64,000 nucleotides of DNA, from positions 1 to 64,000 of the forward strand of contig JAUCBJ010007204.1 in assembly GCA_032718475.1 (NCBI GenBank), given 5' to 3'. Under the pieces are notes generated by a model that did not search any database, had not been told where the DNA came from, and worked only from the letters and a program-made list of their open reading frames with translations. Shown here one piece after another: positions 10,611-32,000 of this stretch (its first letter is position 1; every line of letters begins with the position of its first letter). Source of the stretch: Nemertoderma westbladi (lineage: Eukaryota; Animalia; Xenacoelomorpha). The translations under genes were made by a program, and so were the position numbers.

Positions 10611-11092
10611 TAACGTTTACACCCGCTCAAAACAACCTCTATTGGGTCTGGTTGGTTAATTAATAGTGTATGACATGAAGGAAGCACACCACCACTCAGC
10701 AGCATTAATGATAATGATATTGGTGAAGTTCGCATCACAGCGGATAGAACATATCGTGACCATAGAGCCAGAACAACACATACCACAATTTTTCAAAAAA
10801 AAAATTTTTCACCAAAATTACTCAAGATGGCGTTCTACATCTTATGTTAAAATCCTAGACTTGTATGTCAGTCCGTTTAGGAGATATGGAAAACCAGAAC
10901 AACCCACACAACATAGAAGTTGAAAACTGTTAGAGGTAAAACAACACATACCACACTTTCCCTATCATACTTTGCCAGGAAAAACACCATTCAATAGTCG
11001 AGGAATGACGTGAGTTCTTATGTTTCTGTGATAAAATCCTAGAGGTAAAACAACACACACAGACTAGAGTTAATGTTAAATTTCAGTATGTG

Positions 11093-12292
11093 TGTAAAAG
11101 CTTTTGTGGGATAACTGATTCGTTTGCCTTGCTGGCCAGTTCCCCCCCCGGTCGCTAGAATACTCTAAAAGGGATCTATAGGTAAAATAGTGCAAGCTAC
11201 CAGCTTATTGGCTGATGGGCTGTACGAAGGTATCTGGGTTCTGTTCGATCGGCCAACCAGCTTAGGGAGGTTGCCTTAGCCCTGCTGTCCGTATCGGCCA
11301 ATAGAATTTGAGTGGGCGTTGATTTTGACCTATCCCAGAGCTACTGAACTGAATTTCCTATCTGTATGCTCATCCTCTGTGTTGGACGGGAGCTTCGGGG
11401 AATAAGGGTAGTTGGTATCCTCGTATAGTTATTCTAGTCATATGATTCTTCATATGATTCTGTTGTTGTGTTCCCATTTTCCGCCATAACACCGGCTTTT
11501 GGGAAGAACTCCAGTAAAACTGCTTAAATTATCGAAAGTATAACTGTTACCTTAACTTACCTTACCTAACTCACTTAATTTAACTGCACTAATCATATTG
11601 TTTGTACTGTTATTTACCGTCAGTTATTAATTGTATATATTTGTTGATGAATTATTGCCCTTTGGAGAATACGGATAAATCACCCAAAATTCCCAATTTT
11701 CTTGATACACTACAGGTTAGAGAGACAGGCTATACATAACAATTGCGATTTATATCAATGTGGTGTGTATTGAATCTAATGTTATTTAGCAGACCCTACA
11801 TGAGTCAATTGCTGCTCTCTTTATGTGTGATCAAGTTTACTGACGGTCGGCAGAGTAGTGTGCATGATTGTGAGTGTGACTGGTAACAAAGCATTTCCTA
11901 AAGAATGCGCCTTATACTTTAATCATAAGCAGTATCGTTGCGTTTAGTATAAGTCCTAGTTCTGTTTAAATAGATAGAGCGCCACGTCCTAAAGGAACTG
12001 TTAATATTTCCCGAAAGCCAATAATATCTGTCAGAAATTAATTATTAACGATCTATCGAATAATACAGTAGGTTTACACTGCAACCTTACACTGCAATAA
12101 TAAAATTTAAGCATCCGAATTCAGCCTCCCGGGTGTAGATCCATCGGGTGAATGATCGCGCATGGGCTGACTTCGGCTAATGTTTTGTTTATTAGCATAA
12201 AATATTGTCGTATGCTAAAGGTGTTTTAATTAACTAAAAGACATATAAATTTTGGCAGGTTAAACTGCTAAAGGTCTTCAAAAGCGCGAACA
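11093..12292 (+). repeat. 5' LTR of element A (1200 bp)
   Basis: TGTAAAAGC...GCGCGAACA; direct repeat of 25216-26413 with about five differences by eye. Confidence 0.95.
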
Positions 12293-12303
12293 GTAACAGT
12301 TAT
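12293..12303 (+). promoter_or_regulatory. Non-canonical primer-binding site, complementary to LTR-internal 11540-11550
   Basis: GTAACAGTTAT abuts the LTR end, lacks the TGG start of a tRNA PBS, and is the exact reverse complement of ATAACTGTTAC (11540-11550). Confidence 0.6.
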
Positions 12304-14553
12304 CGATCTTATTGCAGTAAGCAATAAGGTTGCAAAATACCGTAGTGACCGGTAAACCTGAACCGGTACTTCTGTAGGTCAGTAGGCCCAACTGCCAGAA
12401 CCGGTACTGCTGTAGGTCCGTAGGTCCAACTGCCAGAACCGGTACTTCTGTAGGTCTGTAGGCCCAACTGTCCTAACCGGTACTGCTGTATCAGTACATT
12501 AGTATTATTCGAATTTGATTGGTGTATACCGGTAGGTCTTAGTACTTAATCAGGGACTGCAGCCCTGAATTTTTATTGAGATTCTACTTATTTCTGTCGG
12601 TTTTATTTACTAGTAGGCTAATATTGAGCAGAAGGCGTGTGACCCTGCTCAGATTGTTCAGATAATTGTAGGCTGAGCTGCTGTCTGACTGTTGTTGGGT
12701 TTGGAGAGATTACGGCGTGTGTAGAGTTTGTCTGATAAAGTGCCGTTAGTAAGTTGGGGCAGCCATATGCTGTAAGGTCAATCCCCTCTTAAAGAATAAG
12801 TCGTACTACCGTGTTAGAACGCATACTAACTAACTGTTTCAGAATCTGCATATACTGTAGTTTATTTAGGCTTGATCGTAGTCTGCCAGTGTTTTAGCCT
12901 GTGTTTGTTTGTGTGGTCTGTTCAGGTACCGTAATAGTTATTACTCAGATATTTTGTAGGCTGGATTGTTGTCTAGCTATTATTAGGTCTGAAGAGATTG
13001 CTGTGTGTGTGGAGTTTGTCTGATAAAGTGCTGTTAGTAAGTTGGGGCAGCCATATGCTGTAAGGTCAATCCCCTCTTAAAGAATAAGTCGTACTACCGT
13101 GTTAGAACGCATACTAACTAACCATTTCAGAATCTACACGTACGGTAGTTTATTTAGGCTTGGTGGTAGTCTGCCAGCGTTTGGTTTGTATTTGTTTGAG
13201 TATTCTGTACGGGTAGCGTAATATTTATTATTCAGAGTTTATGCGATTATTCGCAACATTCATGTCCCCAAGTTTATTCCTACAGTAATTGTGCTTGTTA
13301 TACATACCGTTATAGTTAAATTAACCCCGGTACTACACGGGCTGCTTGGCGTAGGACAAGACTGGTGACTTTGTGCTCTGGTCACTCCAGCAGATGCCGT
13401 GGTTCTTTTAACTGTTCAAGTATATTTAACTACTGATTATTTGTTGTACCGGTACTTGTACCTAATTTAGGGTTTAGTGTACAGTGCTTTCCGAAGTAAT
13501 TAGTGTGTAGGCAGTATATTTGTGTTGTAAAGTGGTTGATAGGCACATTCGTTAGCTCTATTAACTTCTGGGTAGGAACACTCCGTGATACATAACGTAG
13601 TACCTATAGCGATACGGTTATAGGTCGTCAGGCGGTGGTATTTTCCTATCTGGACAGCGCAGTATATTTACTACTACTTATTATTTCAAATACCGTAGTA
13701 CCCTGTCTGTTCTAATAACCAGAATTCTAACCCTTTGTTAGGCTGGTTTGTAGACTTCCTGTAAAATTACCCTAAAAAATTTCGTACGTAATATTTTGTT
13801 GTGTTTAATTAGAGAATTAATCTCACCCGTATCGTAAGTAATTTGTAGTATTAAGTAACTTAGGTAAATTAGAATTATCAGTTTTAGTGTCTCAATAAGT
13901 AGCACTTCACTGAGAGCGCACAGCTTCTGTGTAGTGACTCCCCAGAAATAATAACATTTATTTCAAATATTGACAAAACCCATTTTAAACGGGTATATAT
14001 CTATTATAAATCAACTCAAATGATTTATAAATAGTAGGCCTGCCATCCAACAACTAGGTCTCAATATCAGTTGGACTACTGCTTAAATAACGGTAATAAA
14101 GTAAGTTAAAGTAACCAAGTAACCCTAAAATATTCAGAAATTCAATTATTCTAAAAATAATTGACATACCGGTATTTACCATAGGCTTATTATATTTATT
14201 TCTATAAATTTGAGCTGAAATCATACCGGTACTCTGTACTTAATTCTAGTTTGTAATAATTATATTTATATATACTATAAGTGTCAGCTGTATACTGGTA
14301 TTCACGATAGGCCTATTATATATTTATATATATTTGTGCTAAAATTATATACCGGTACTCTGTGACAAATCTAGTCTGTAATAATACGTATATATATATT
14401 ATAAGCATACCGGTATTCTAATATATTGTATATATATCACGTTACACCGAGTAACGGTACCGGTAATAAATAGCTAGGCTTGCGGTCATACTGAATTACC
14501 AGACTTGCTTTAACTGAAACTATAGTAGTAGACATTCAACTGTATAGCTAAAC

Positions 14554-17500
14554 ATGTCTGACACTCAACAAAACCTGTCAGACAGTCTGATCGATACAAC
14601 TATCTGCGACACAGATAGGAGTGTGGAGCGATTAAGAAAGGAGTTCAGCTCACCTCCTACTGCAAAAAAGGTCATCCCTCCAGTAGTATCAGACCCTAGG
14701 CTAATCCACCATAGGTCCATCATAGGCACTCGGGCACAGGTCAAACGGAACCAAGAGGCAGTTATCCTATCGCAGCAACATCTTGGTCAAGAACCTACTT
14801 CACAGCGACCCGATAGCTCCAGCAGTTCGGATACTGTAGAGCTGACCCCCGAACACGGAGTGCAGATGGCTGATACAGTCTACTCGGACCCCCTTCTTAC
14901 CCTTCCTGCTGCAGTGCTAACTACTATATTCATTGCGGTGGAGGAACATCAAGCCGACTGGGCGAGGAATAAGCGAGCGACCCAAGATAATTATGCGGGA
15001 TACGCCAGGGAAGAATTGATGTCTATTGTCGAGTCACAATGGAACTTTCCCGGACTCGGACTCCCGTTGGATCTGTCCGAGGCTACTTGGGAAGATATAC
15101 ACAGGATGGGAGTGGCTAAAGACACAATGGATCCAGCTGTTTGGAAGAGGTCGGCAGCAGGATATGTGCAGGGATTCTTCGGCTCCTTGGAGCGATTGGA
15201 AGAACAACTGTTTCGACAACCTCAAGGACCTCAAGAGCAGGAAGAGCTGCTATACCAAATACGCGAAAGAACCCTACGCATACGACTAATCCTCTCAGCC
15301 TTTGAGGAAACTTCCAAAAGAAGACAGGACACGTCGCTGCAGGTTGCTGTCAAAACTTGGTTACATCGGGTAGATCTTAAAGTACAGGAAACGGCCCAGT
15401 GGAAATCCCAGCTGGCTGAGAGATCAACCTATGAAGAACAAACTGATGTCACCCTTTCTCAAGCGGAAAGCGAAGAGACCGCCGAGAAACCGCGAACTAG
15501 AGACGCTATCGACATATATTTGTCCGACTATCAGCGATTCCTAGGAGACGAAGAGTTGAGGAGACGGCTGTCTGGACTTTCCCCTAATAGTGAAGGAACC
15601 AAGCTTGTGTTGGACTCAATCGATGCGGAAATGTTAGCTGCAAACCAAGCTGAATGTGATGAAAAACTCCGCCTCACTAGAGTCCGAGAAGAACAAGTAA
15701 AGAAAGAATGGATAGAGAAAAGAAAGGTGGCAGCAGCAGCGGCGGCAGAAGCAGAAGCCGAAAGAAAAGCGGCAGAAGCAGAAGCCGAAAGAAAGTCGGC
15801 AAAAGCAGAAGCCGAAAGAAAGGCGGCAGAAGCAGAAGCAGAAGCCGAAAGAAAGGCAGCAGAAGCAGAAGCAGAAAGAAAAGCAGCAGTGGCAGAAGCA
15901 GAAGCCGAAAGAAAGGCGGCAGAAGCAGAAGCAGAAAGAAAAGCAGCAGTGGCAGAAGCAGAACGTAGAGCTTCTGAGGAGACTATCCAATTGGAGTTGG
16001 AAAATCTGCAAGAGACGCAAGACAGTATAAATAAACAGTTTACTGCTAATCAAATGCAGATGATGAGAAAATCTACTCCCAAGCGCCAGGGATACACATC
16101 CTCGGAGGAAGGCGAGACTACCGATCCTGAAGGCGGAGGAAATAGATCTCATCTAAGTAGGCGTAGAAAAACATCTTATCGTCGCAAATTGCCTGATTTG
16201 CCCCCAGCTGTTAGAAGACAGCTAGCTAGCACAGACTTGAGTAGTATAGAACCTACAGCCCAAAGTATTAAAGTCCAAAGACTCTCTACAATAGTTGATG
16301 AGCCTGAGATAATTAGGCCAGTCGTTCCCAAAGTCACTTCTGTGTTAGAGACCCCTGTACTTCCAGAGCTTAACTCTAAATTCCCTTTACATAGTACTAC
16401 ACTGCCTGTACCCGGTGGAACAGTCCAAGAGAATATCTCTGTCCAGATAGCAGAGAGAGAAATCAAAAATTTGTCTCCCGTCGTCCCGCATCAGCCCGCT
16501 ACTATGTTGGCGACTCCCGCTTTGGCGGTTGAGTGGGTAGAAGAGGGACGGCGGGGGATGAATCTCCTGCTAGGACAGATGCAGGAGACTGTCCACCAAC
16601 TTAAGGGAACAGTGAGGGAAGGTAGAGCAGAGTTGCAAGAAGTGCAGCAAAGTATCGCACTAGAACGCGACAAATTAGTCAATATCCAAAAGGGCATACC
16701 AATACCCCCTGTAACATTGTGTCAACCTGTTAGGTCTGAAGTACTACATGCACAAGGTGTGGAGCCTACACGCATCTATACTGCTAGTGAAGTAGAAACT
16801 CCTATAGCAAACCCTATTAAGGGTGATTATACGCCTGTTGCTAATGATATTCCCTATAGACCTGATAATAATCCGAGAAATTTATATACCGATAATTCAA
16901 TATTAAATAACACGATGGCCCAAGAAAGTTTTACGCGTCAGATGGCTAGAACAGAAGCCCGCCAAGCGGTCAAAGTGGGAGAGATCGTCAAATTCAATGG
17001 AGATGAGATGAAATGGTTACCTTTCAACGAATATTACAAAGATAGCATACAGAACTCTGTACTATCTAACGGAGAGAAACTTAGATTCCTCATCAAGTGC
17101 TTGGAAGGACCTCCCAAGTTAATGGCGTTAAAGTTTATTGGACATCCAGATGGATTAAGACAAGTTTGGGATACATTAAACATCAGGTATGGTAACAAGG
17201 ATAACATAGCTAAGTATTTGTATGCAAAATTAGTAGCCCCCCGACACTTCCTTAGTAGCGGGATTATAGAGTTTTCCGATGAAATTCAAGAGATCTGTAG
17301 ACAACTGGACTGGTTAGGTAAGTCACATGAATATCAGAGTTCCATGGTTATTGGAGCCGTAGTCTCTACTTTACCAAAGGGTGGAGTATGTACACGCTGG
17401 GACAAGAAAGTGTTGTACATGAATGAACAACAACGACGAAGTCCTACCATGGCTGATCTCATGTCTTTCTTAGATAGTGAAGTAAAATTACAACTCATAA

Positions 17501-19257
17501 GGCCGTCCAGAGAGAAAACATCAGAAAATAAGGTAAGTGAGAAACCCGTTTCTAGGAGAAGGATAATACCAGTGTGTTATACTGACGAAGGCGAAAGCCA
17601 AGCTTCTCAAGAAGAGGACAGCGGGAAAGACACAGCAAAATCGTACTATGACAACAAGACCTATAAAGACGTAAGTAAATACAAGTCTCGAACCAGTGAC
17701 AGGAGAGAACAGGTAACAACAACTCCTCCTACGTCTCCTAAGAGAATTCCCGGAAGAAAGCCCGAAGAAAGAACGAGAGTGCATAACGTTAACCAAGTTA
17801 AGGTGAGTAACATCAAACCAAAATGTGCGCTGTGCGACGGGCCCCACCGTTTGAGTGCGTGTGCTGAATTTCTAAAGAAATCCCTTGTAGACAGACGTAC
17901 AGTCCTGTGGAATAAGCGGTTTTGCTATAATTGCCTCAGACCAGGACATCAACGGCGAACCTGTTACTCCGACATAAAGTGTGCAAAGTGTGGCGCGAAA
18001 CATCACATCTTGTTACACAGTGAGTTCGAACGAGACAGACAGAGTCAGGTAAGTGAGCCCGAACTACATGTCCAATTCAGTGACGTAAACGACACTGATC
18101 AAGAGTCTGAGATGGAAGGATTCTATACTGACGAATTCTCCGACGCCAATGAATCCTGTTATCTAATAAATACCGCAGTGTATCGAGCACTTACTTACGA
18201 AAAGGACATCAACGATGAGTTTCCCCCAACTACTTTCGCCAAACAACCATCTTGGAAAGCTCCAGCTTCCAACGTAGGAATCAGAGAATTTCCTGTAGTT
18301 CAAGTAAGAGTTCACGGTCTTAACAAAAGCTACATAGTGAACGCCCTCCTTGACTCCGGCAGCACAGGAACATTCATCGATCAAGAACTAGCCGAAGATA
18401 TCTTTGCTGGACAACCCAAGTTCCGGACTAAATTGAATATGTCAGGAATTATGCAGGTTTGGAAATCTACCCTAACGGCAGACTACTATGTAGGTGTGTT
18501 GTCCACCCCCCAGGATAAATTAGGAGCACAAGGTATAAGGTCGGTAAAAATGGTGGCTATAAAGAACTTCGCTACTACCCAAGCAGACCTTTATAATTGG
18601 GACGAGGATGAGAGCATCCAACATCTTAAGATACCTCGAGTCCAGACAGATTATCCTGGAGTGCAAATACTCATCGGCCAAAACGCGCATGAGGCGCTCG
18701 AGACATTGGAGAAACGGCCTGCTCAACCGCAGCCACTACAAACCTATGCGGTAAGAACTAGAGTAGGTTGGTACTTCACTGGCCCTTCCCATAGAACTCT
18801 CAAAGAGAGATTACCTCAACAACAGGTATACCAAGTAAAGGAATGGGAAGTGGAGAGCAGTGATGTGGACGATCCAACTGAGGGAACACCATACTCCTCA
18901 GATAATGACGATATTAACTCCGATGTAGATCAACGGAGACATTGCCTTGGGACAATTAATCCAGCCGACATCGATCCCAGAGGAGCAACTCCTCAAGAAC
19001 TGATGGATACTCCAGGCTGGTTAGGTGGATCCGACTTCTTAAGTAAAGAAGAAGATGAACGGCCTCCTCATCTTACCACGGCGGAGAGTAGACAGGCCAA
19101 GGGAGCGGAGAAAGTAACACGACAACCCAATCACCCAGCTGGTCGTTTATGTTTACTGGAAAGAAACCGGAAACTGTCCGGAAACTATGGAAGGCAAGAT
19201 ACTCTTCCTACGACCACTTCCCTAATCCGACAAATATCTAGGGACTCCATAACGTAA
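14554..19257 (+). CDS. gag: BEL/Pao-type Gag-aspartic protease polyprotein (1567 aa) with vestigial RNase H and integrase remnants
   Basis: Contains a capsid-like segment (KFNGDEMKWLPF...EKLRFLIKCLEG...RYG), three Cys/His knuckles (CALCDGPHRLSAC, CYNCLRPGHQRRTC, CAKCGAKHHILLH), protease ALLDSGS (~18343) and ILIG...TRVGW. These are followed by NPAD..RG....W..G..FL and RLCLLE. An AEAERKA repeat tract lies at ~15740-15970. Confidence 0.9.
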   Translation: MSDTQQNLSDSLIDTTICDTDRSVERLRKEFSSPPTAKKVIPPVVSDPRLIHHRSIIGTRAQVKRNQEAVILSQQHLGQEPTSQRPDSSSSSDTVELTPEHGVQMADTVYSDPLLTLPAAVLTTIFIAVEEHQADWARNKRATQDNYAGYAREELMSIVESQWNFPGLGLPLDLSEATWEDIHRMGVAKDTMDPAVWKRSAAGYVQGFFGSLERLEEQLFRQPQGPQEQEELLYQIRERTLRIRLILSAFEETSKRRQDTSLQVAVKTWLHRVDLKVQETAQWKSQLAERSTYEEQTDVTLSQAESEETAEKPRTRDAIDIYLSDYQRFLGDEELRRRLSGLSPNSEGTKLVLDSIDAEMLAANQAECDEKLRLTRVREEQVKKEWIEKRKVAAAAAAEAEAERKAAEAEAERKSAKAEAERKAAEAEAEAERKAAEAEAERKAAVAEAEAERKAAEAEAERKAAVAEAERRASEETIQLELENLQETQDSINKQFTANQMQMMRKSTPKRQGYTSSEEGETTDPEGGGNRSHLSRRRKTSYRRKLPDLPPAVRRQLASTDLSSIEPTAQSIKVQRLSTIVDEPEIIRPVVPKVTSVLETPVLPELNSKFPLHSTTLPVPGGTVQENISVQIAEREIKNLSPVVPHQPATMLATPALAVEWVEEGRRGMNLLLGQMQETVHQLKGTVREGRAELQEVQQSIALERDKLVNIQKGIPIPPVTLCQPVRSEVLHAQGVEPTRIYTASEVETPIANPIKGDYTPVANDIPYRPDNNPRNLYTDNSILNNTMAQESFTRQMARTEARQAVKVGEIVKFNGDEMKWLPFNEYYKDSIQNSVLSNGEKLRFLIKCLEGPPKLMALKFIGHPDGLRQVWDTLNIRYGNKDNIAKYLYAKLVAPRHFLSSGIIEFSDEIQEICRQLDWLGKSHEYQSSMVIGAVVSTLPKGGVCTRWDKKVLYMNEQQRRSPTMADLMSFLDSEVKLQLIRPSREKTSENKVSEKPVSRRRIIPVCYTDEGESQASQEEDSGKDTAKSYYDNKTYKDVSKYKSRTSDRREQVTTTPPTSPKRIPGRKPEERTRVHNVNQVKVSNIKPKCALCDGPHRLSACAEFLKKSLVDRRTVLWNKRFCYNCLRPGHQRRTCYSDIKCAKCGAKHHILLHSEFERDRQSQVSEPELHVQFSDVNDTDQESEMEGFYTDEFSDANESCYLINTAVYRALTYEKDINDEFPPTTFAKQPSWKAPASNVGIREFPVVQVRVHGLNKSYIVNALLDSGSTGTFIDQELAEDIFAGQPKFRTKLNMSGIMQVWKSTLTADYYVGVLSTPQDKLGAQGIRSVKMVAIKNFATTQADLYNWDEDESIQHLKIPRVQTDYPGVQILIGQNAHEALETLEKRPAQPQPLQTYAVRTRVGWYFTGPSHRTLKERLPQQQVYQVKEWEVESSDVDDPTEGTPYSSDNDDINSDVDQRRHCLGTINPADIDPRGATPQELMDTPGWLGGSDFLSKEEDERPPHLTTAESRQAKGAEKVTRQPNHPAGRLCLLERNRKLSGNYGRQDTLPTTTSLIRQISRDSIT

Positions 19258-20883
19258 TAACATATGGAGTGGGCGTGTGACTATATCATTTTATATTTGT
19301 TTTTATTTTATATTTATGTATGTATTATTATGTAATTTTATTATAATCATTTTCTTTAATTTTTATTTAGTAGAATGTTATTTTAGGGATTATTTAGTAG
19401 ATTAGTGCAATATATTAGTGTTTATTACGTACATAATTACTATAATATATATTTAGTGCGACGGCGAGAAATAATTATTTTTCTCTTCCCTTACTGTCCG
19501 TATCATATTATAAATACGTGACTACAGTAAGATGAAATGTCTGTACTTCTTAAAGTACAATAAAGCCACTACTATATTTAAGTATTATTGGTAGGCAGAG
19601 TATTAGGAATGCAAAGTTCAGATCCTCGTGTCTCGGCTAAACCAAGCTCTGGGTAGACCTTGGAAACGACTTGCCTCTTCACACTGACATTGCTTCGTGC
19701 GATATTGCTCTTCTACCTTATAACAAATAATACATATAGTAGCGTGATGTCCCTCTAACAGTAGCGTAAATCGCAAATAAATCTGTTAAACTTTTTGACC
19801 ATCTGTAATTCTAGTCGATTAAGATATCGTGGCACCCACCGATATACTTGAAAGACAAATTCTAGAATCAGTGGTTAACGTCCCCAGACAAGTTCTGGAA
19901 TAAATCGGTGCCCATCCTAAATATTAATTTAATATTTATTAAAATCTGTAAAATCCCGATCCTTTAAAATTTCTAGTCAATTAAGATATCGCAGTATTTA
20001 CCGATATTCTTAGAAGGACTATTTTATAGAATTAAGGATCCTAAGTCCCCAGATATGCTCTGGAATAAAATTTGTGTCAATTTAACATCAAATAATAAAA
20101 TTCACGGGAATAAATTTAAATTCATATTCAAATGAATTTCATAAATTGTCATTTTGTGCAATTTATAACATTCCCAAAATTCCAGTAATTAATAGATCAT
20201 GGGAGCGGAGATTCATATTGAGTGTACTAGAGTGCGAGAATCTCCAACATATAGTCAATAGCCGATAAAATTTATAAAATCATGCATAAAGAGGATATTG
20301 ACAATTAAAGAATTACTATTAAATAACATCCCAGATCTGTATGCATGAGAATTACCCTAATTCTACCGCTAGTTTTCCATAATGTCACCATGGCAACACC
20401 CACGCTAGAATTAGAAGCAAGTTAAAGGAACAATAAAAAGCTTGCCCCATTGCGTAGCATAAGAGTATACATAGCGCACTATTAGTATCCAAGGATACAT
20501 AGTAATAACGTGACATTCTGGAAGACACTGACTAACGGACAAATGGCATGCATGTGTGCAGTAAGTAATGATTGTATGGAATTTGTGCGTTTATAGGTGA
20601 ATGTTACTACTAAAGTGTGTTTACAGTAGCTAATCGCAATTGTAAAGTAGCCCTAACTCTACCGAGATAACCTCAAGTGGATTCAAGCCTTTGGGACGGA
20701 CAGTGGTGGGACTTGTGCCGGTTATCGTTGTCGTGCTGTTGCTACATGTTGGCGTAAACACCGCGACAACGGTACATCGGCGCTGAGAAACCCACTGTCC
20801 GGGGGCAAAAGCCTAGTAGGCAGCGACGCCCGCTTGCCTAAAATATTAACTCATATTGATATTAATAAACTCAGATAGCAGAT

Positions 20884-23800
20884 ATGACGGAATTGATAGA
20901 AGATGACCTTGGTATCAGGGAGCGATATACTCTACCTTTACAAGCGTTTGTGGATAGCTTGATACGCGGTGAAGCCGATCCGACTATTACGGAGGACGAT
21001 GGTCGTTATATCGAACCGCCGATGTCCCAGGAACAACTTACGCGTGAATTGGACTATAGAAAATTCACCGCTCGCTATACGAATCGTAATGGTACGTATA
21101 TGGACTTCTTAACTACCGGCCATCCTACCGATTTACATGATACGGAAGATGTAGACACCGAAAGGGAAATGGTTTTATTTAAATATCATGCCCAGCGGAA
21201 TCGTAATGATAAACCGAGAATAGAACACGAGAACTCTATTCGCAACCTACTCGACAGAGAAAACGTTGAAGAACCCGATAAGCGCCTCAACTTCAACGAC
21301 TACTTGGAATTTTTGAGAGAAACCTATCTCAATATTGCCAGTCAACAGAACCTAGAGACTCGATATCCTCAAGGTATACATCACGATCCCATGGTAGAAC
21401 TCAAACGACTCTATTTCACCATGATGTATCTTACCGCAGATCGTCCACTGCCTGTTGTCCCGGACAGCTTTGAACAAATGGAAGAGTATTGCAAAACTGG
21501 AGAACGATCACCCGCGTTTCCTCTGCAGGACGTACGTCTTTGGTATTATTGTGACTCATGTCCTAGACCTAACCAGCAAACGGAAAGACATAAACATCCG
21601 CGGAGACGTTGTGCTAAACACAGTTTTACGCGTTATACTTACGGGAGTTTCGAGCGAAACCTGTTCGACGTATCACCTACGATCGCCCGTCTAAAACGCT
21701 CGCTAAATAAACCCATGATCAGAGTTCCGGAATACTCGGTCAGGCCTCCCCATTTCCCCGTGAGACCTCAAACTCTTGATCCTAACAGTATCACTGATCC
21801 TCCCGAGTTATACTCACTGTTCAAAGATTTGGTGTTACCCGAGCAGTTAATCGGTGGTGTTCCAGCGGTAGGTTCGTTAGATATTCGACCATCCTATTTA
21901 ACCGCATTGGGACGCGGGCATCTAACATCGCCATTTAATCCTTACAATCGGCCAGGATTAACTCCGATACAACCTGCCACGGAAGTCGAGGAGAGTGTCA
22001 TCAGAAACGCTCTAGACGCCATCCGACAGAAAATCGGAAAGGGAACCCAGGATTTTCTAGAGAAACGTAAATTACAGCAGCAGGTCCAATCGGTGAAAGA
22101 GTTAGCCTTGCCGCAGTTTGATAGAGAAATCCAAAACCTCGAAGAGGACATCGAGCTTGGACGTACGTATTCTCTACAGGAGTTTCTAGAAGAACGCTTA
22201 CAGAAACAAGCGGAGGAAAATCAACTAGAGGAGAAACATACGGAAATGGATGAGAGAGAAGAAGCCGCTTTAGCCCAACCCGAAGCTCAGATACTCATAA
22301 CCGATCTCTACTCTAAAACCGTCCGTCATCCCTCGATGGTTCCGCATTTCGGAGATAAACTTTTCGCAAAGATACAACCCCAACCGGTTGATATCAGCAT
22401 AAGATCGCAAAATCTTATCGCCGACGCTCCTATGTTACAGCGTCCGCCAATCGAGGCCGCTCGAGTTGACGGTATACTCGTTGAACCTCCGGACAATCGA
22501 GCGGATCTTGTCCGTCGTATGGTACACGATGTCAACATACGCGCTAGACCTTTACAGAACTCTTTTTATGGAATTAAAGACCACCCTTATTACGTTAATC
22601 TGACTCAATATTATATGGTCAAACCAGAAGATCCGACGCATAATTTAAAGTTTCTACCACTAATAAATCCTCTGGACATTGTCGAACTCGAACAATTACA
22701 AAAACATCTGGATCAGTTAGTAAAGGTAAACTCATTTCGAAAACCATATAACGTTTCTCGAATAGAGAAGGATACAGAACCTCCTTATAATCTCGATGGA
22801 TTTATTAAAACTCGATTAGTCCATTGGAATCTAGACGTATTATTCGAGGAGGAGAAAATACAACGATATGGAAATGTGGAGACGTATACCACTCGATACC
22901 TGAAGTATAGTGATCTCCCTGACGCTAATCAATGCGCCACCTTGTGGCATCCGGTAGGGATGACCCTCGAGAACGCCACCAAAGAGTGGAATGAAACTCT
23001 TAATATCATTGAGATGTATGGCGTTGTTACTTACGATAACGAAGGTAGCGTTCCAACCGGAGAATTAGGAACTACGCGCATGATACACATACGCGGATTA
23101 GCTGGTTCCACTCACGTGTTTACGCGAGCGTGTTCCGACGTGATAGATTATTCCTTTGAAACTCTCACCGAAACGCAAAAGAATCTCCGACATGGACAAT
23201 TCGAACTCGCGCAGCGTTACGTCATTGATACCGAACGCAAACCGGCCATGGGTATCGATGGATCAATGTTACCCCAGCCCGTTCTCGAGATGTTATTCAA
23301 CGAAAGAATCATTAAAATCGGCTCAGCTGTTTACGGAGATCTCCAAAACGACTTTCGGAATATGGAAAATATCCCCTATCCTTTCGTGGATACTCAGCTG
23401 ATAGCTCCTTGGGCCGAAGGCCGAGGTTTCTTCCGCACCATGTATGCTAATGCGTCTAGCGACATTACAAAGGTGCAACGAACTTCCATCGGACATCTTG
23501 CTTTTCAGGAATACGGATGGAATTTCAAGGTCGGAAACCCCATCAACTATCAACAAGTATACGGAGACCATTATTCTCGATTATACTTTGACGGACCGTT
23601 GACCGCACCTGGCGCCGTGTATAGCTTCATGAGTGTTCCACTCCGCCCCTCCTTAGCTATCTACACGATCTTCGAAAACACCGCACTTTCCGGTTGGCTA
23701 GCCGATGTGTGCAGTCGTACTATACGCGCCCATCCATTAATCCTTGGGACCAAACTCGCTAAGCTAGATGAACATAATAAATTCATCCGCTTTGAATGTT

Positions 23801-25137
23801 TCCGACGGTTTTTAACCCCGTTTCGCAATGTGGATAGCCAATTCAAAGACCGCGCTTTGACCAAGCTCAGCTTAAGAGACTCGGCTGCGGAGAAGTTAGA
23901 TAGTGCTGGATTTGCTATTTTCAAAGACGTTTGTATAATAAACCTGCACTCCTCGGTTATCCAAAGACCTCGGATCCCCACAGGTTATTCTGTCGTGGAA
24001 ATTCAGACGGTAGGTCCACTTGAAGAAACGGCCATACCTACCTCAACTATACAAGGGGAAGACGAACCCATATGTTTAGAATCTGAAGAGATTCAGCCCC
24101 CCACGTCTCGGAGTAGCGATAGCGACTACATATTGGAATGGTATCAAGGTCCACAGTGTCTCACTGCGTATGATTATCGCCATGCCAATTATGTTTCTCG
24201 ACAACGCTGTCGGCTGTGCGCATCGAGAGACCATATTACGTCTATGGACACCAACGATCTCTGTTCCTATTTCCACGAGCAACCGTCGATGGAAATCTAT
24301 TGTGCATATTGTCGGCTTAATAATTTGCATATTTTTGCTGTCTGTCCCCAATTTATGACTCAATGCCATCATTGTCAATTAAAAGGACACGCCAGCTTTG
24401 ATTGTCCCTTTAATCATGATTTAGAGAGCGTAGATGAAATGATTGTACTACATTATATCAGAGCTTGGGAAGCGAACGCTGATTTACATTGTGATTCACG
24501 CCATCGCTATTACCCTGGACGCGCTTACGAAGGAGTTTATGCGTTCCATCCTTATTTGTTTGCCTCCGTCGAGCAGAAATCACGCCTATCAAGTTATGAA
24601 CTATTGAAACGCGTTGGAGAATGTATTTCAACTAAATATGTACGCAAATTTCTCAGGAGCATTAATCCGAGTGACATCAATTCTTACAACTTAATAAACT
24701 TTATCCGTCAAGATCCGGCCTATGGAGACTTGTTTGTCAACTCACACCCCGAGTTACAGGAAGTGTATCGACGGCCTTACGAGTATCGAGCCCGCGAACG
24801 CGAGTTGGAAAGAACCATTAAACCAAGGAAGTTTCTAACTGCCTATGGTCCACCCACGGCCCTCGTTCAGACCACTCATAAAGGACCCGTAAGAGAGGCT
24901 GTCTTGAAACGAGCTCTTAAAGCCGTTAGACCCCTCTCCCCGGACGTTGATGTCAATCAACCCGGTACGTCGACCGGCGGATATACCGATCGTAATCCCA
25001 TACCTTCTGATGCAATCATATTGCACCCTTCACCCAGGAGTTATAGCCCTCCTTGTAAAGTGGCTCGCCCCAAAGAGAAAAGGACTCTTGCTAGCCTTAA
25101 AAAACTGCGTAAACGCCGTCCGCGCAAGAAAGACTAA
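20884..25137 (+). CDS. Element-borne 1417-aa ORF2: DEDDy 3'-5' exonuclease-like domain, CCHC zinc knuckles, basic C-terminus
   Basis: Uninterrupted ORF inside the LTRs. Motifs: ExoI VVTYDNEG (D718/E720), LPQPVLEMLFNERIIKIG, ExoII ..YGDL (D819), FVDTQLIA, SIGHLAFQEYG, and ExoIII-like PL...YTIFE (Y927/E931). Zinc knuckles: CRLCASRDH, CAYCRLNNLHIFAVC, CHHCQLKGHASFDC. It ends KKLRKRRPRKKD. Confidence 0.8.
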   Translation: MTELIEDDLGIRERYTLPLQAFVDSLIRGEADPTITEDDGRYIEPPMSQEQLTRELDYRKFTARYTNRNGTYMDFLTTGHPTDLHDTEDVDTEREMVLFKYHAQRNRNDKPRIEHENSIRNLLDRENVEEPDKRLNFNDYLEFLRETYLNIASQQNLETRYPQGIHHDPMVELKRLYFTMMYLTADRPLPVVPDSFEQMEEYCKTGERSPAFPLQDVRLWYYCDSCPRPNQQTERHKHPRRRCAKHSFTRYTYGSFERNLFDVSPTIARLKRSLNKPMIRVPEYSVRPPHFPVRPQTLDPNSITDPPELYSLFKDLVLPEQLIGGVPAVGSLDIRPSYLTALGRGHLTSPFNPYNRPGLTPIQPATEVEESVIRNALDAIRQKIGKGTQDFLEKRKLQQQVQSVKELALPQFDREIQNLEEDIELGRTYSLQEFLEERLQKQAEENQLEEKHTEMDEREEAALAQPEAQILITDLYSKTVRHPSMVPHFGDKLFAKIQPQPVDISIRSQNLIADAPMLQRPPIEAARVDGILVEPPDNRADLVRRMVHDVNIRARPLQNSFYGIKDHPYYVNLTQYYMVKPEDPTHNLKFLPLINPLDIVELEQLQKHLDQLVKVNSFRKPYNVSRIEKDTEPPYNLDGFIKTRLVHWNLDVLFEEEKIQRYGNVETYTTRYLKYSDLPDANQCATLWHPVGMTLENATKEWNETLNIIEMYGVVTYDNEGSVPTGELGTTRMIHIRGLAGSTHVFTRACSDVIDYSFETLTETQKNLRHGQFELAQRYVIDTERKPAMGIDGSMLPQPVLEMLFNERIIKIGSAVYGDLQNDFRNMENIPYPFVDTQLIAPWAEGRGFFRTMYANASSDITKVQRTSIGHLAFQEYGWNFKVGNPINYQQVYGDHYSRLYFDGPLTAPGAVYSFMSVPLRPSLAIYTIFENTALSGWLADVCSRTIRAHPLILGTKLAKLDEHNKFIRFECFRRFLTPFRNVDSQFKDRALTKLSLRDSAAEKLDSAGFAIFKDVCIINLHSSVIQRPRIPTGYSVVEIQTVGPLEETAIPTSTIQGEDEPICLESEEIQPPTSRSSDSDYILEWYQGPQCLTAYDYRHANYVSRQRCRLCASRDHITSMDTNDLCSYFHEQPSMEIYCAYCRLNNLHIFAVCPQFMTQCHHCQLKGHASFDCPFNHDLESVDEMIVLHYIRAWEANADLHCDSRHRYYPGRAYEGVYAFHPYLFASVEQKSRLSSYELLKRVGECISTKYVRKFLRSINPSDINSYNLINFIRQDPAYGDLFVNSHPELQEVYRRPYEYRARERELERTIKPRKFLTAYGPPTALVQTTHKGPVREAVLKRALKAVRPLSPDVDVNQPGTSTGGYTDRNPIPSDAIILHPSPRSYSPPCKVARPKEKRTLASLKKLRKRRPRKKD

Positions 25138-25207
25138 CTGTTTAGAGTATTTTTATATTTTAGAAACTGTGATTTTGTATATTTTATAGACTTAAATCCT
25201 ATTTTCT

Positions 25208-25215
25208 GGGAGCGG
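25208..25215 (+). promoter_or_regulatory. Short polypurine-tract-like sequence
   Basis: GGGAGCGG immediately precedes the 3' LTR; it is short and imperfect. Confidence 0.5.
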
Positions 25216-26413
25216 TGTAAAAGCTTTTGTGGGATAACTGATTCGTTTGCCTTGCTGGCCAGTTCCCCCCCGGTCGCTAGAATACTCTAAAAGGGATCTA
25301 TAGGTAAAATAGTGCAAGCTACCAGCTTATTGGCTGATGGGCTGTACGAAGGTATCTGGGTTCTGTTCGATCGGCCAACCAGCTTAGGGAGGTTGCCTTA
25401 GCCCTGCTGTCCGTATCGGCCAATAGAATTTGAGTGGGCGTTGATTTTGACCTATCCCAGAGCTACTGAACTGAATTTCCTATCTGTATGCTCATCCTCT
25501 GTGTTGGACGGGAGCTTCGGGGAATAAGGGTAGTTGGTATCCTCGTATAGTTATTCTAGTCATATGATTCTTCATATGATTCTGTTGTTGTGTTCCCATT
25601 TTCCGCCATAACACCAGCTTTTGGGAAGAACTCCAGTAAAACTGCTTAAATTATCGAAAGTATAACTGTTACCTTACTTACCTTACCTAACTCACTTAAT
25701 TTAACTGCACTAATCATATTGTTTGTACTGTTATTTACCGTCAGTTATTAATTGTATATATTTGTTGATGAATTATTGCCCTTTGGAGAATACGGATAAA
25801 TCACCCAAAATTCCCAATTTTCTTGATACACTACAGGTTAGAGAGACAGGCTATACATAACAATTGCGATTTATATCAATGTGGTGTGTATTGAATCTAA
25901 TGTTATTTAGCAGACCCTACATGAGTCAATTGCTGCTCTCTTTATGTGTGATCAAGTTTACTGACGGTCGGCAGAGTAGTGTGCATGATTGTGAGTGTGA
26001 CTGGTAACAAAGCATTTCCTAAAGAATGCGCCTTATACTTTAATCATAAGCAGTATCGTTGCGTTTAGTATAAGTCCTAGTTCTGTTTAAATAGATAGAG
26101 CGCCACGTCCTAAAGGAACTGTTAATATTTCCCGAAAGCCAATAATATCTGTCAGAAATTAATTATTAAAGATCTATCGAATAATACAGTAGGTTTACAC
26201 TGCAACCTTACACTGCAATAATAAAATTTAAGCATCCGAATTCAGCCTCCCGGGTGTAGATCCATCGGGTGAATGATCGCGCATGGGCTGACTTCGGCTA
26301 ATGTTTTGTTTATTAGCATAAAAGATTGTCGTATGCTAAAGGTGTTTTAATTAACTAAAAGACATATAAATTTTGGCAGGTTAAACTGCTAAAGGTCTTC
26401 AAAAGCGCGAACA
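25216..26413 (+). repeat. 3' LTR of element A (1198 bp)
   Basis: Direct repeat of 11093-12292, followed by the TSD ATGTG. Confidence 0.95.
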
Positions 26414-27029
26414 ATGTGTTGTTTTGCCTCTTTGGAAAATAACGAAAAAAACAGTTTTTTTCATTAACAAAATTTATTCTGAATGCTAGCCACTATTAGA
26501 AAATGTATCATTGTATCTTCCCAGACCTCTGTCGAAAAAATTAGGAGACGGGATCCATATAGAGGGAAATGAGAAGGTTTTTTGCATTTTTCTCGAAACC
26601 ACATTTGTTGGTGAGTGTTGTTCTGGCTCTTTGGTCACGATATGAACAACGCAAGAATGCTCGCGAACGCTACCAACGGCGCATTGGTCGTTCCACCGAG
26701 GGGACACTGTCTGCTGTGCAATCGTCCTCTGCACTCCCTACCTTTTCCGGAGGTAGAAAGGTGCAGAGCCAAGGAGTGAGTGCTACGGTTTCTGTATCCG
26801 ATCCATCGATAGCCACTGCTGCGAACTATCTACATAATGTTAGTAGTGTCTCCACTGATGATGAAGTTTCTCTTTCTAGTCCCCAAAACCTAGGAATGAG
26901 AAATGCGACGACCAATATCCAGGAATCTGGTGATGTAGTTAGTGAGTTTTGTGTCGATCCGGTTGGTTCAGTCTTCACAGTCAGGTTGACTACGTCATCA
27001 ATCGGGTGATTGCCTAGGTAGTAGGCCTA

Positions 27030-27860
27030 CTGGTAACTTTACTGTTTTAAACATAAATGCCCAGTGTATTAGAAACAAACTTAATGAGTTGCGTGTTAGG
27101 GTTGCATTAATAAAACCTGATATAATTGCAGTGACTGAAACCTGGTTAGATAATACAATTCATAATGAAGCCCTTTCTATATTGAATTATGACTTATATA
27201 GATGTGATAGAGATACCGATGGTGGTGGTGCTGCACTTTATATACGACAGTCTAATATGTTTTCAGTTGAAATAGTTAACCCAGGCAATATCTGTTTTGA
27301 TGAGTTTATCTGTTTACGTATAAATCAGAATAATGGTCGTAATTTTACAGTTTGCTGTATTTACCGCTCTACAGCATCTTCGCATGCTAATGACACAGCT
27401 TTGCATGTTTTAATTGACAAGTTACTTGTTAATTGTGGTTGTGAAATTTTGTTTACCGGTGATTTTAATTTCCCTCATATAGATTGGGAAAATTTGTGTA
27501 CATTACCTAGGGCAAGGCAATTTGAGCGCGATTTTCTCGAATTTGTTCTTGATAATAATCTTTCTCAACACGTTTTTGAAAACACGAGACTGGATAGAAA
27601 CCATATTTTGAGTTCTAGATTAGACTTATTTTTTACTAAATCCATTTATTCAATTTCTGATGTACGTGTACTCTGTCCTCTTGGGAAGTCTGACCATAGT
27701 GTGGTGCATGCGGTCTTGAATGTACACCGGGATATTAGTGAACCTACTCGGACGTACTTAAGATATGACAAGGGTGATTACGACAACTGGCGAACATCCC
27801 TCCGTGACATTGACTGGGATGACTGTCTGGAAGGCAAGGACGCTGACCAGGCATGGACTG
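27030..27860 (+). pseudogene. CR1-type LINE ORF2 endonuclease fragment, cut by element B
   Basis: Motifs NINAQCIRNK, PDIIAVTETWL, RCDR...GGGAALYI, IYRS, GDFNFPHIDW, LDLFFT, SDH and YDKGDY...L..IDW. The frame is broken exactly at the TGTAA start of the next LTR. Confidence 0.85.
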
Positions 27861-29057
27861 TGTAATGGCTTTTGCGGATCTAACTAGTTATTTTCCCCGC
27901 AAAGTACTCTGTAGGTGTTTTAACGGACATAAAAAGCCGTTTCCTTACTGTACCGGTGTTTTAGTGGACATAAAAGCCATTTCTTCTATATGTGTACTTT
28001 AGCGGACATAACTACTGTGTACTTTAGCGGACATAACTAGCGATCTTATGTCGCAATAGCCAAAATCCTCTTGACACAGTGTAGTTACTATGACGACGGC
28101 TAACAGCTGATCTGTACACGTGGAGGTTTTCCTTTGTTCTCTGTCGTTTCTTTGTTCGGTCGACCAATCAGAGCGTTTTTTTTGACTCTGTGTTGGAGGT
28201 TGTATACAGAAACTCAGGAATTGAGTCAGTATGTGCATTTGGTCCTGGGCCCAGAAGACCGGCTTTGGAATCTCTGTGTTTTCAGTCTTTAGCCCAACAT
28301 TAGTAGGCTTAATTATAGAACGTATATCTGTTATCTTACAAACCACAAACCAATTCATATCTACAAACACCGCATTTTACTGCTATTTACTGTCGGTCAT
28401 TAATTATATCAGTTGTTTGATGGAATATTATTATATTGGATAATATCGATAAATTAATCATAAAACCCTCAATCTTCTTGATATACTGAAGGTAAGAGAG
28501 ACCGGTTACATATAACGATTGCGACTTACATTAAAGTGGTTTTGAAGTGAATCTAATGCTATTTCATAGGCACTACATGTATTGGTTGTTGTTCTCTTTA
28601 TATGTGACTAAAATTAGTGAAGGTCGGCAGATCGGTGTGCAGCATTGTGCAGTATTCTGTATGATTGTGACTGATAACAAAGCATCTCCTAAAGAATGCG
28701 CCATATACGTGAATCCATAGCCATCCCGTTGTGTCTAGTTAAAGTCATAACTCTGTTTATATATTTAGAGCGCCACGTCCTAAAGGAACTGTTAATATTT
28801 CCCGAAAGTTAATAATATTTGTCAGAGATTATATATTACGATCAGTCGAATAATACAGTAGAGTAGGCCTACACCGCAATAAGGTTAGGCTTCCGAATCC
28901 AGTCTCCCGGGTATATCCAAGGGGTGAATGGTCGCGCATAGACTGGCTTCGGCTAATGTAGTGTATCAAATACTCGTCATAGGCTAAAGTCGATTTATTA
29001 TCTAGAAGACATCCAAATTTGGCAGGTTAAACTGCTAAAGGTCTAAAAGCGCAAACA
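27861..29057 (+). repeat. 5' LTR of element B (~1197 bp)
   Basis: TGTAATGGCTTTTG...GCGCAAACA. The 3' two-thirds align with the element A LTR; the 5' part is diverged and has short (TTTAGCGGACATAA)-like repeats. Confidence 0.85.
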
Positions 29058-32000
29058 ATAACAGATATAGCTTCTGTATTGCAGTAGGCAATAAAGCTGA
29101 AGTACCGGTCAACCGGTACCTAGTAGGCCTGACTACCTAACCACCCGGACTGGTACCTACAGCAGTACAGGTACCGTACAGCAGTATTATTTCGATTGTG
29201 ATATATTGTATATTGTAGGCTGTTAGGGGATTAGGGATTGATCACCCCTTATTCCTTTGTATGGTTTACTTATTTCTGTCAGTTTTATTTATTTGTAGGC
29301 CAATATTGAGCAGAAGGCGTGTAAGCCTGCTCAGATTGTACAGATAATTTGTAGGCTGGACTGTTGTCTGACTGTCGTTAAGTCTGAAGGGACTGTAGTG
29401 TGTGTAGAGCGTATGTCCGAAAAAGTACTAGTTAGGAAAGTAGGGGCTTCCAGTGCTGTGAGGTAAACCCCCTCGAAAGAATAAGTCGTACTACTCGGTT
29501 AGAACGCATACTAACTAACCATTTCGGAGTCTGCATATACTGTAGTTTATTTAGGCTTGATAGTAGTCTGTCAGCGTTTGGTCTGTATTTTGTTTGAGTA
29601 GTCTGTACGCGTAGCGTAATATTTATTATTCAGAGTTTATGCGATTATTCGCAACATTCATATCCCCAAGTTAATTCCTACAGTAATTGTGCTTGTTATA
29701 TATACCGTTATAGTTAAACTAACCCCGGTACTACATCAGGGCTGCTTGGCGTAGGTAAAGACTGGTGATTTTGTGCCCCGGTCACTCCAGCAGATACCGT
29801 GGTTCTTTTAGCTATTCAAGTATTTTTAACTACTGATTATTGGTTGTATAAGTACTTGTACCTAATTTAGGGTTTAGTGTACAGTGCTTTCCGAAGGTAA
29901 TTAGTGTGTAGGCAGTGTATTTGTGTTGTAAAGTGGTTAATAGGCACGTTGGTTCTCGTAGACCGCGGTAATTAACTTCTAGGTAGGAACACTCCGTGAT
30001 ACATAACGTAGTACTTATAGCGATACGGCTATAAGTCGTCAGACGGTGGTATTTTTCCTATCTGGAAATATATTTATAAAATAGTAGGCCTGTCTTACAA
30101 CAATTAGGTCTCAATATCAGTTGGACTACTGCTCAAATAACAGTAATAAAGTAAGTAAAGTAACCAAGTAACCCCTAAAAATTCAGAAATTCAATTATTT
30201 AAAATAATTGACATACCGGTATTTACAATAGGCTTATTATATTTATTTCTATAAATTTAGGCTGAAATCATACCGGTATTCTGTAATTAATTCTAGTCTG
30301 TAATTATACTTATATATATACTATAAGTAAGCTGTATACCGATATTCACGATAGGCCTATTATATATTTATAAATTTAGGCTGAAATTATACCGGTATTC
30401 TGTAATTAATTCTAGTTCATAATTATACTTATATATACTATAAGTGTAAGCTGTATACCGGTATTCACAATAGGCCTATTATATATTTATATATATTTGT
30501 GCTGAAATTACATACCAGTATTCTGTGACAAACCTAGTCTGTAATAATACTTATATATATATACTATAGGTGTATACCGGTATTCTAATATATTATATAT
30601 ATATATCACGCTACACTGAGTAGCAGTATCGGTAATTAATTACTAGGCTAACAGTTGATACTGAATTACTAGACTTGCTTTAACTGTAATATAGCAGTAG
30701 GCATTCACCTGTACAAACAAACATGTCTGACACAAAGCAAAACCTGTCAGACAGTCTCCTAGATACAACCATCTGTGACCCAGACAAGAGTGTGGAACGT
30801 GTGAGACCGAAGTTCAACTCACCTCCTACTGTAAGAAAGATCATCCCTCCAGTAGTAGTATCAGACCCTAGGCTAGTCCAACACCGTAGGTCTATCATAG
30901 GCACTCGAGCTCAGGTCAAGCGGGACCAAGAAGCAGCGGAACAGCGGCAACACTCGAGCCGAGAACTTATTTCTCAGCGGCCCGACAGCTCCAGTAGTGA
31001 GGATACTGTAGAGCTGACACCCGAGCACGGAGCAAAGATGACAGATGCGGTTTATTCGGATCCCCTTCTCATCCTTCCTGCAGCCGTACTCACTAGGGTA
31101 TTGATTGCGGTGGAGGAACACCAGATTGATTGGGCGAGAAGTAAGCGATCGACTAAGGATAGTTATGCGGGATACACAAGGGAAGAACTGAAGTCTATTG
31201 TCGAGTCGCAATGGAACTTCCCCGGACCCGGACTCCCGTTTGACTTATCGGAAGCTGCCTGGGAAGACATACACAGGATGGGAGTGACAAAGGAAACCAG
31301 CGATCCAGCTGTGTGGAAGAGGTCAGCAGCCGGATACGTACAGGGATTCTTCAGCTCCATGGAGCGATTAGAGGAACAATTGTTTAGACAACCACAAGGA
31401 CCTCAAGAGCAGGGAGAGCTGCTTTATCAAGTTCGAGAAAGAATTCTAAGAATCAGACTAATCCTATCGGCCTTTGAGGAGGCTTCGAAAAGAAGACAAG
31501 ACACGTCGTTGCAAGTTGCCGTAAAGACTTGGTTACAGCGGGTGAGTCTCCAAGTTCAAAGAACTGCCCCGTGGAAATCTCAGCTGGCTGAGCGCTCAAC
31601 CCTTGGAGAATCAACAGACGCTACCTTTTCACAAGTGGAAAGCGAAGCGACAGCAGAGAAACCGCATAAGAGGGATGTTATTGACATCTATCTGTCAGAC
31701 TATCAACGCTTTGTAGGTGATGAAGAGTTGAGGAGAAGGCTAGATGGACTTAGCCCTAATAGTGAAGGAGCCAAGCTTGTGTTGGACGCTATCGATGCGG
31801 ATATGAGAGCTGCGAACCAAGCTAAATTTGATGAACGCCTCCGTATCGCTAGAGTCCAAGAAGAACAAGTAAAGAAAAAACGTATAGAAGACAGAAAGAC
31901 AGCGGCAGTGGCAGCAGCAGTGGCAGCGGCAGAAGCAGAAAGAAAGGCGGCAGAGGTAGAAGCCGAAAGAAAGGCGGCAGAGATAGAAACAGAAAGAAAG

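Follow-up and report, generated by a model that had tools for sequence, protein, structure and literature searches.

A recent BEL/Pao-derived retrotransposon copy without reverse transcriptase and integrase, with a likely exonuclease gene and a predicted self-priming signature, in Nemertoderma westbladi

The 64,000-nucleotide (nt) stretch of Nemertoderma westbladi DNA analysed here (assembly GCA_032718475.1; contig JAUCBJ010007204.1, positions 1 to 64,000; hereafter the window) contains a long terminal repeat (LTR) retrotransposon of 15,321 bp with two long open reading frames (ORFs), in neither of which a reverse transcriptase (RT) or an integrase was found. The locus raises the question of whether this element is a single damaged copy or a member of a family that moves without its own Pol, and what its leader and its second ORF contribute. 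The best explanation, to which a probability of about 0.6 is given, is that the element is a recent BEL/Pao-derived copy without RT and integrase, likely belonging to an old family, predicted to prime its own reverse transcription and likely supplied with Pol by a helper.

The element (coordinates 11093–26413; Table 1) is complete, as first described in a preliminary description made from the sequence alone. The target ATGTG is present on both sides, and the LTRs, which have the ends TGT...ACA, show five differences (three substitutions and two one-base indels), indicating that the insertion is recent. Both ORFs are stop-free. The perfect 5-bp target duplication, the LTRs differing at about 5 of 1200 positions and the two long uninterrupted ORFs reported in that description were thus all recovered. 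An LTR length within 0.2–1.2 kb, a polypurine tract (PPT) and a target duplication, which are expected of BEL/Pao elements, are all present.

The product of ORF1 is a Gag-protease of the BEL/Pao type, as had been proposed. It includes the DUF1759 domain, the triple Cys/His box and the LLDSG motif of the protease (Asp_protease_2 E 0.019, below cut-off), and all 21 relatives found with amino acids (aa) 800–1520 as query carry DUF1759 and Peptidase_A17, as in BEL/Pao Gag-Pol. A BEL Gag-Pol profile was built from 17 of these relatives, leaving out P0012, P0013, P0019 and P0023, which were partial or fused. It matched ORF1 at aa 791–1433 (profile 107–627) and again at aa 1458–1516 (profile 1153–1211; independent E-value 1.2e-7); as ORF1 had been the query, the profile is partly circular for both matches, but not for the RT and integrase that it missed. 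The second match sits between Peptidase_A17 and the Integrase_H2C2 zinc finger of the relatives, and is presumably the C-terminal end of RNase H. When 2561 six-frame pieces of the window were scanned, no profile match to RT or integrase was found in the element, and the motifs [YF]xDD and [YF]VDN are absent from ORF1 and ORF2. The split profile match, with no further match, indicates an in-frame deletion that removed RT and most of RNase H, with a spacer in place of integrase; a degenerate integrase in the spacer was rejected, as no profile match lies there. The loss of RT and integrase that had been claimed is therefore upheld, but the pol region is not entirely gone, as a remnant of ~60 aa is kept in ORF1.

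The most unusual feature of the element, which the preliminary description had missed, is a signature of self-priming. BEL/Pao replication is poorly understood and is primed by tRNA, the family rule being an 18-nt site for tRNA-Arg or tRNA-Gly (PMC8742986). By a check for TGG within 30 nt after the LTR, from which host tRNAs were left out, no tRNA-type primer site of this kind was found in this element or in a sister copy located downstream. Directly behind the 5' LTR lie 11 nt that are exactly complementary to a stretch within the LTR (chance 44/20000; among 99 control positions the longest match was of 10 nt, at a single position), and the sister copy has a 12-nt complement at the homologous site (chance 56/20000). 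The two copies differ at two positions per strand in the 11-bp helix, and both changes are compensated. The helix, which spans ~740 nt, was formed in the minimum free energy and centroid folds of both copies. Between the two LTRs, the first ~430 nt align poorly and are likely U3, whereas the remainder, likely R-U5, is about 65–80% identical per 100 columns; clear similarity begins near 11540, consistent with the end of U3 and the start of the transcript at this site. Under an operational rule, self-priming elements have a complement of at least 10 bp starting 0–5 bp after the LTR (PMC6317226, in part). The complement found here is of that length and position, and matches the 11-nt geometry of Tf1 (PMC7175516, in part). 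The RNA of the element is thus predicted from these complements and folds to prime its own reverse transcription in the manner of Tf1. Weighing against this prediction are the post hoc nature of the comparison, its reliance on two copies and a transcript start that is itself predicted. Half-tRNA priming, which was not compared with host tRNAs, was rejected as the better reading. Lacking both Pol and the tRNA primer site of Belpaoviridae, the element is best called a BEL/Pao-derived non-autonomous element.

Whether the Pol-less form is one copy or many was addressed in two ways. The sister copy, noted earlier as diverged and ~1.4 kb away, was located 1448 nt downstream of the element, with an identity of about 82% over Gag. 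The similarity stops at 34318, immediately past the Gag Cys/His boxes, and a protease, ORF2 and 3' LTR of this copy were not found in the window. As it breaks off before the protease, the sister copy is silent on the loss of pol and on ORF2, and does not serve, as had been suggested, as evidence of a long-lived pol-less family.

Contigs from five of ten public short-read runs (X1, X3, X4, X5 and X7) were also compared with the element; X4 is perhaps an RNA run, and X7 (organism C), which gave short, low-depth pieces, was left out. For the region 18560–19420, 24 pieces are listed for X3, X4 and X5 (2192 more exist), and three of the 24, from studies P4, P2 and P3, cross the motif-inferred deletion point (18903–18915) gap-free and are 12–15% diverged (Table 1). 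All 30 bins of this region were covered in X3, X4 and X5, and the whole element was covered continuously in X1, X3 and X5, again with no empty bin among 30. ORF2 pieces listed for X5 were also gap-free; one of 730 nt has 82 differences and another of 561 nt has 60 (~11% diverged). In X3, one ORF2 piece had a depth of 14039 and a flank piece a depth of 13; contig depth is not copy number, but a depth of this order marks a repeat. Among 12 indels listed (139 more exist), 11 are outside the ORFs, which make up 59% of the element, and the one inside is of 3 nt. It is likely that the element belongs to an old, high-copy non-autonomous family, and the earlier view of a multi-copy family and not a one-off deletion is supported by the diverged deletion-zone pieces and the repeat-level depth of ORF2. 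Two further pieces are candidates for parts of a rare pol-bearing helper: one (X5 rec 21) fits 18760–18914 and continues with 228 nt unlike the element (depth 30), and the other (X3 rec 6) fits 18987–19109 and continues with 253 nt unlike it (depth 39). A joint of 11087 to 26414 with a single target copy was present in contigs of X1, X3 and X5. The shorter contig sides are only 19–29 letters and the target lies inside a repeat, so an empty target exists but polymorphism of the locus is not implied.

ORF2 probably encodes a DEDDy-like exonuclease that also has zinc knuckles. Its N-terminal ~690 aa have no family assignment, and aa 640–1020 gave an Atlas score of 0.92 to DNA_pol_A_exo1 clusters (25 of 30 matches, 165 shared features). 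A full HMMER pass over 1.84 billion representatives returned two relatives (E 6e-7 and 4e-4), P0028 and P0029 (648 and 575 aa), in which an exonuclease-like region is followed by Cys/His knuckles; P0029 shares 194 Atlas features with a cluster of PF01612 and zf-CCHC, at a score of 0.92. In each of the two restricted alignments, acidic residues fall at all three Exo motifs (D723/E725, D824 and Y932-x3-E936, P0002 numbering), of which D723/E725 (ExoI) and D824 (ExoII) align with both relatives. Several points count against the assignment. Chance alone gives Atlas scores of at least 0.9 in 4–10% of cases, and 165 shared features fall short of the 170 mark; ORF2 passes no Pfam cut-off and P0028 reaches PF01612 only at E 0.2; the whole-length alignment and one BLAST put Ser at ExoIII; and even the favoured ExoIII register gives Glu for the fourth Asp. 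Two single-sequence structure models had a predicted local distance difference test (pLDDT) score of about 30. Word-based searches among proteins of near or shorter length found no match to ORF2, the only matches among PDB sequences were chance ones or nucleocapsid knuckles, and scans of metagenome and viral contigs with ORF2, P0028, P0029 and their alignment found no locus. P0028 and P0029 form a small family of stand-alone exonuclease-like proteins with knuckles on contigs of 9–11.5 kb, and may derive from other mobile elements.

An env product was rejected for ORF2, as the highest 19-residue hydropathy is 1.36 and there is no predicted membrane segment and no env family match. The earlier proposal of a nucleic-acid-processing protein at the env position is supported by hydropathy, the Atlas comparison and the relatives, which point to a likely exonuclease with knuckles. 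Such a cargo is less novel than that description suggested, as DEDDy ORF3s have been described in LTR elements of bdelloid rotifers (PMC5408684, in part).

Table 1. Positions in the window of the element, its sister copy and the contig pieces crossing the deletion point
Feature	Coordinates	Strand	Basis or remarks
Target-site duplication, left copy ATGTG	11088–11092	.	sequence; direct comparison
5' LTR, 1200 nt	11093–12292	+	self-alignment
Predicted self-primer, near predicted transcript start	11540–11550	+	complement of leader; folds
Predicted U5 stem-loop, the same in both copies	12251–12272	+	folds, comparison
Primer-binding position, predicted pairing with 11540–11550	12293–12303	+	complementarity
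Predicted hairpin just behind primer-binding position	12310–12326	+	two-copy consensus fold
ORF1, 1567 aa from Met, Gag-protease and RNase H tail remnant	14554–19257	+	ORF map, profiles
DUF1759, BEL/Pao Gag domain	16993–17379	+	Pfam E 8.8e-12, above cut-off
Triple Cys/His box, all three Pao/BEL patterns (PMC554778, in part)	17824–18018	+	pattern match
Aspartic protease region, approximate bounds; LLDSG at ORF1 (P0001) aa 1267	18298–18792	+	motif and profile
Zone with in-frame deletion of RT and most of RNase H, ~525 positions of the profile; profile-based wide bounds	18844–18919	+	profile 107–627 then 1153–1211
Pol remnant, ~60 aa	18919–19095	+	profile, independent E-value 1.2e-7
Contig piece X5 rec 20 (study P4)	18713–18945		27 differences; gap-free across deletion point
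Contig piece X3 rec 5 (study P2)	18832–18942		14 differences, depth 4629; gap-free across deletion point
Contig piece X4 rec 12 (study P3)	18868–18996		19 differences; gap-free across deletion point
AT-rich non-coding spacer, 1.6 kb, at expected integrase position	19258–20883	+	ORF map, profile search
ORF2, 1417 aa from Met; basic C-terminal tail	20884–25137	+	ORF map
DEDDy-like 3'-5' exonuclease domain (likely), approximate bounds	23011–23703	+	Atlas, relatives, alignments
Three Cys/His knuckle-like motifs, one canonical CX2CX4HX4C	24208–24405	+	motifs; zf-CCHC_3 E 0.0046, below cut-off
PPT, purine-rich, directly 5' of 3' LTR	25207–25215	+	sequence
3' LTR, 1198 nt	25216–26413	+	self-alignment
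Target-site duplication, right copy ATGTG	26414–26418	.	sequence; direct comparison
Truncated sister copy	27861–34322	+	alignment; LTR 27861–29057, Gag frame 30690–34322
Sister self-primer pair	28323–28334 with 29058–29069	+	complementarity

The main rival, judged unlikely, is that the element is an ordinary deletion derivative, in which ORF2 and self-priming are ancestral, the Pol-less form hitch-hikes, and the ORFs are intact through recent amplification and not selection. Internal deletions are common in LTR families (PMC3286476, in part), and several findings weigh on this side. ORF2-deleted forms are abundant, with a joint of 21246 to 24056 at depth 2918 in X5 compared with 304–367 for the ORF2-interior pieces listed, and a second such joint (22624 to 24978) is present in X1. 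The eight ORF2 variant sites listed show no third-position excess (3/8), and no significant departure from neutrality within a genome is reported for the ORF3s of bdelloids (PMC5408684, in part). The ratio of nonsynonymous to synonymous substitution rates (dN/dS), proposed earlier as a check on both ORFs, is 0.23 for Gag at dS 0.50 against the sister copy and 0.11 for the DUF1759 region, in favour of the preferred explanation, but the Gag value may predate the loss of pol. Other points, like the ORF2-deleted forms and the ORF2 variant sites, count against the preferred explanation. At the wide bounds, only X5 rec 20 spans the deletion zone, and its 26 right-hand letters are fewer than a 31-letter rule demands. 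No listed contig spans the spacer-ORF2 or the ORF2-LTR boundary, the contigs, all from short reads, yielded no further full-length copy flanked by a target duplication of its own, and no helper element was identified beyond the two candidate pieces. Against the deletion-derivative rival, the 12–15% divergence of the deletion-zone pieces indicates that the Pol-less form is old, the ~11%-diverged ORF2 pieces are gap-free, the listed indels avoid the ORFs, and nine of the 13 variant sites listed in the protease part are third-position.

Somewhat more doubtful is the possibility that the LTR-leader helix is structural or serves packaging and that a tRNA or tRNA half primes at an unrecognised site. 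Priming by tRNA is the rule of the International Committee on Taxonomy of Viruses (ICTV) for the family (PMC8742986), half-tRNA priming exists in Ty1/copia lineages (PMC6317226, in part), and host tRNAs lay outside the primer-site search; against it stand the absence of TGG after either LTR and a helix that in both copies begins immediately behind the LTR, with no base between, and keeps its pairing through two double changes. A two-part system, in which an element with Gag-protease and exonuclease and a partner with Pol alone are mutually dependent, as in a segmented virus, appears improbable. It would fit the rarity of contigs departing from the element at the edges of the deletion (depths 30 and 39 compared with hundreds to thousands) and the description of the plant single-gene elements TR-RT and TR-INT-RT (PMC9784723, in part). 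However, sequence of the protease side is present in X5 rec 21, which is what a helper with complete Gag-Pol would show, a pol-less subfamily that rejoins at 19173 may account for the loose ends at 19115, and no Pol-only partner was seen among the contig pieces listed. Misassembly, or a chimera of a Gag element and an unrelated exonuclease element, is the least probable by far: the element as a whole is bridged by neither a long read nor one contig, but the LTRs match, the target duplication is clean, the PPT directly follows ORF2, the window contains no N, all bins were covered in three runs and the uninterrupted target was found in the same number.

Under the preferred explanation of a Pol-less copy aided by a helper, transcription would start near 11540 and the first 11 nt of the RNA would pair with the 11 nt that immediately follow the 5' LTR. 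By analogy with Tf1, the RT/RNase H of the helper would cut after the paired stretch and extend into U5. The element's own Gag-protease would package its RNA, which, we propose, would favour the keeping of Gag in cis, and co-assembled helper Gag-Pol would provide RT and integrase. Of integration only the outcome is seen, namely the 5-bp duplication and the near-identical LTRs. The ORF2 protein would probably be made from a spliced or subgenomic RNA, and could bind RNA via its knuckles and trim 3' ends. Among four uses of ORF2, weighted by judgement and not by computation, the single most likely, though itself tentative, is to process or protect the RNA of the element within its ribonucleoprotein; countering host small-RNA silencing is only slightly less likely, a non-catalytic RNA-binding role is less likely again, and a neutral passenger is the least likely of the four. 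A bolder and rather unlikely possibility is a self-priming BEL/Pao lineage whose dominant form is Pol-less, with an exonuclease that trims RNA to the 11-bp helix and a rare helper or Pol-only partner. If so, the satellite would control priming and perhaps packaging, and the partner would provide only RT and integrase.

A self-priming BEL/Pao element would represent a further independent origin of tRNA-free priming, beyond those in Ty3/gypsy and Ty1/copia. For the DEDDy exonucleases carried by transposable elements, no activity or role is demonstrated (PMC5408684, in part). A high-copy Pol-less family with ORF2 open across about 11% divergence would provide, within a single genome, many natural copies, some with the cargo and some lacking it, making the question of why retroelements carry nucleases directly testable.

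Other features of the element and its surroundings were observed. The Gag region includes Ala/Glu-rich tandem repeats (15720–15970) that differ in length between copies. The spacer contains a duplication of ~100 nt (19809–19904 and 19971–20069, 76%) and, at 20200, a second copy of the PPT 9-mer, possibly an ancestral PPT from before the gain of ORF2 or a central PPT. The element is nested in an element of ~570 bp (10750–26644) with 36-nt inverted ends, and this is surrounded by an endonuclease fragment that, from its motifs, we take to be like a long interspersed nuclear element (LINE). The sister copy is inserted at 27861 into the same LINE-like fragment (26990–27865). Several medium frames at 116–2966 (+ strand) weakly resemble BEL Pol proteins in their RT region (E 0.02–0.7) and are likely another decayed retroelement. 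A stop-free STAT frame of 755 aa (43378–45645, + strand), with STAT_int, STAT_bind, linker and SH2 above cut-off, is intronless and hence possibly a retrocopy; the STAT gene, like the metazoan range of BEL/Pao (PMC8742986), points to an animal host. The STAT frame is flanked by two near-identical intronless DXD glycosyltransferase genes (Gly_transf_sug; 36317–37366 and 47865–49109, both + strand), which are likely a local duplication. An array of at least about 155 copies of a 39-nt unit, with a C-over-G skew of about -0.8 and long open frames, occupies 55800–62100.

Among known systems, the element is closest to BEL/Pao (Belpaoviridae, Semotivirus; PMC8742986 and PMC554778, in part), with which it shares the DUF1759 Gag, the triple Cys/His box, an LLDxG protease, the 5-bp duplication and the PPT, its LTR being at the 1.2-kb upper end. 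It differs in lacking RT, integrase and a tRNA primer site, in having only a tail of RNase H, in its size of 15.3 kb compared with 4.2–10 kb in the family, and in an extra ORF that is not an env glycoprotein. The env-bearing members Tas, Cer7, roo and Anakin carry a glycoprotein after pol, whereas ORF2 has no predicted membrane segment. Anakin of mosquitoes resembles the element in its Pao backbone, its captured cargo after pol and the occurrence of defective or non-autonomous copies, but that cargo is a chuvirus membrane glycoprotein (PMC7642597, in part).

The self-priming elements Tf1/Tf2, Sushi and Tcn1 (Ty3/gypsy) and TAR/Houba/Osr-1 (Ty1/copia) share an 11-nt LTR-to-leader complement, the lack of a tRNA site and a U5 stem-loop with this element (PMC7175516 and PMC6317226, both in part). 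However, they belong to other superfamilies, and here the loop is ~740 nt and the RNase H for the cut would be needed in trans. The chromovirus (Ty3/gypsy) ancestry of Tf1 and Sushi is not seen, as all 21 Gag-protease relatives are of the BEL/Pao type. The element is predicted from its sequence to work like Tf1 in priming, but is not a member of the Tf1 clade.

For the cargo, the nearest likeness is to Juno and Vesta of bdelloid rotifers, which have a DEDDy-like exonuclease gene at the env position, with an altered acid set (DEED, compared with a likely D-E-D-E in ORF2), and to TelKA2n, a non-autonomous element that keeps ORF3 after losing most of pol (PMC5408684, in part). Juno and Vesta are rotifer lineages that keep pol; TelKA2n keeps env and lacks part of gag, whereas the present element is BEL/Pao with a full Gag-protease (PMC5408684, in part). 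ORF2 also differs from bdelloid ORF3 in its 1417 aa, its knuckles and its long unassigned N-terminus. TR-GAG and other plant single-gene LTR elements have two LTRs, keep Gag and have lost Pol, and are mobile in some species (PMC9784723, in part), but they are from plants and have no second large gene, whereas this is an animal BEL/Pao element with a protease and a 4.3-kb cargo.

The literature comparison also took in PMC3601003, PMC6431247, PMC6338049 and PMC11662393 (in part), and the text of PMC3118150 and PMC12440569 makes no mention of primers or exonucleases. No report of self-priming or of an exonuclease in BEL/Pao elements was found in a search that left out Repbase, GyDB, subscription journals and supplements. 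A Cer element of C. elegans may carry an exonuclease ORF; if so, the novelty of the cargo within BEL/Pao would be lower. Each part of the element has a precedent elsewhere, and it is their combination in a BEL/Pao element that appears to be new.

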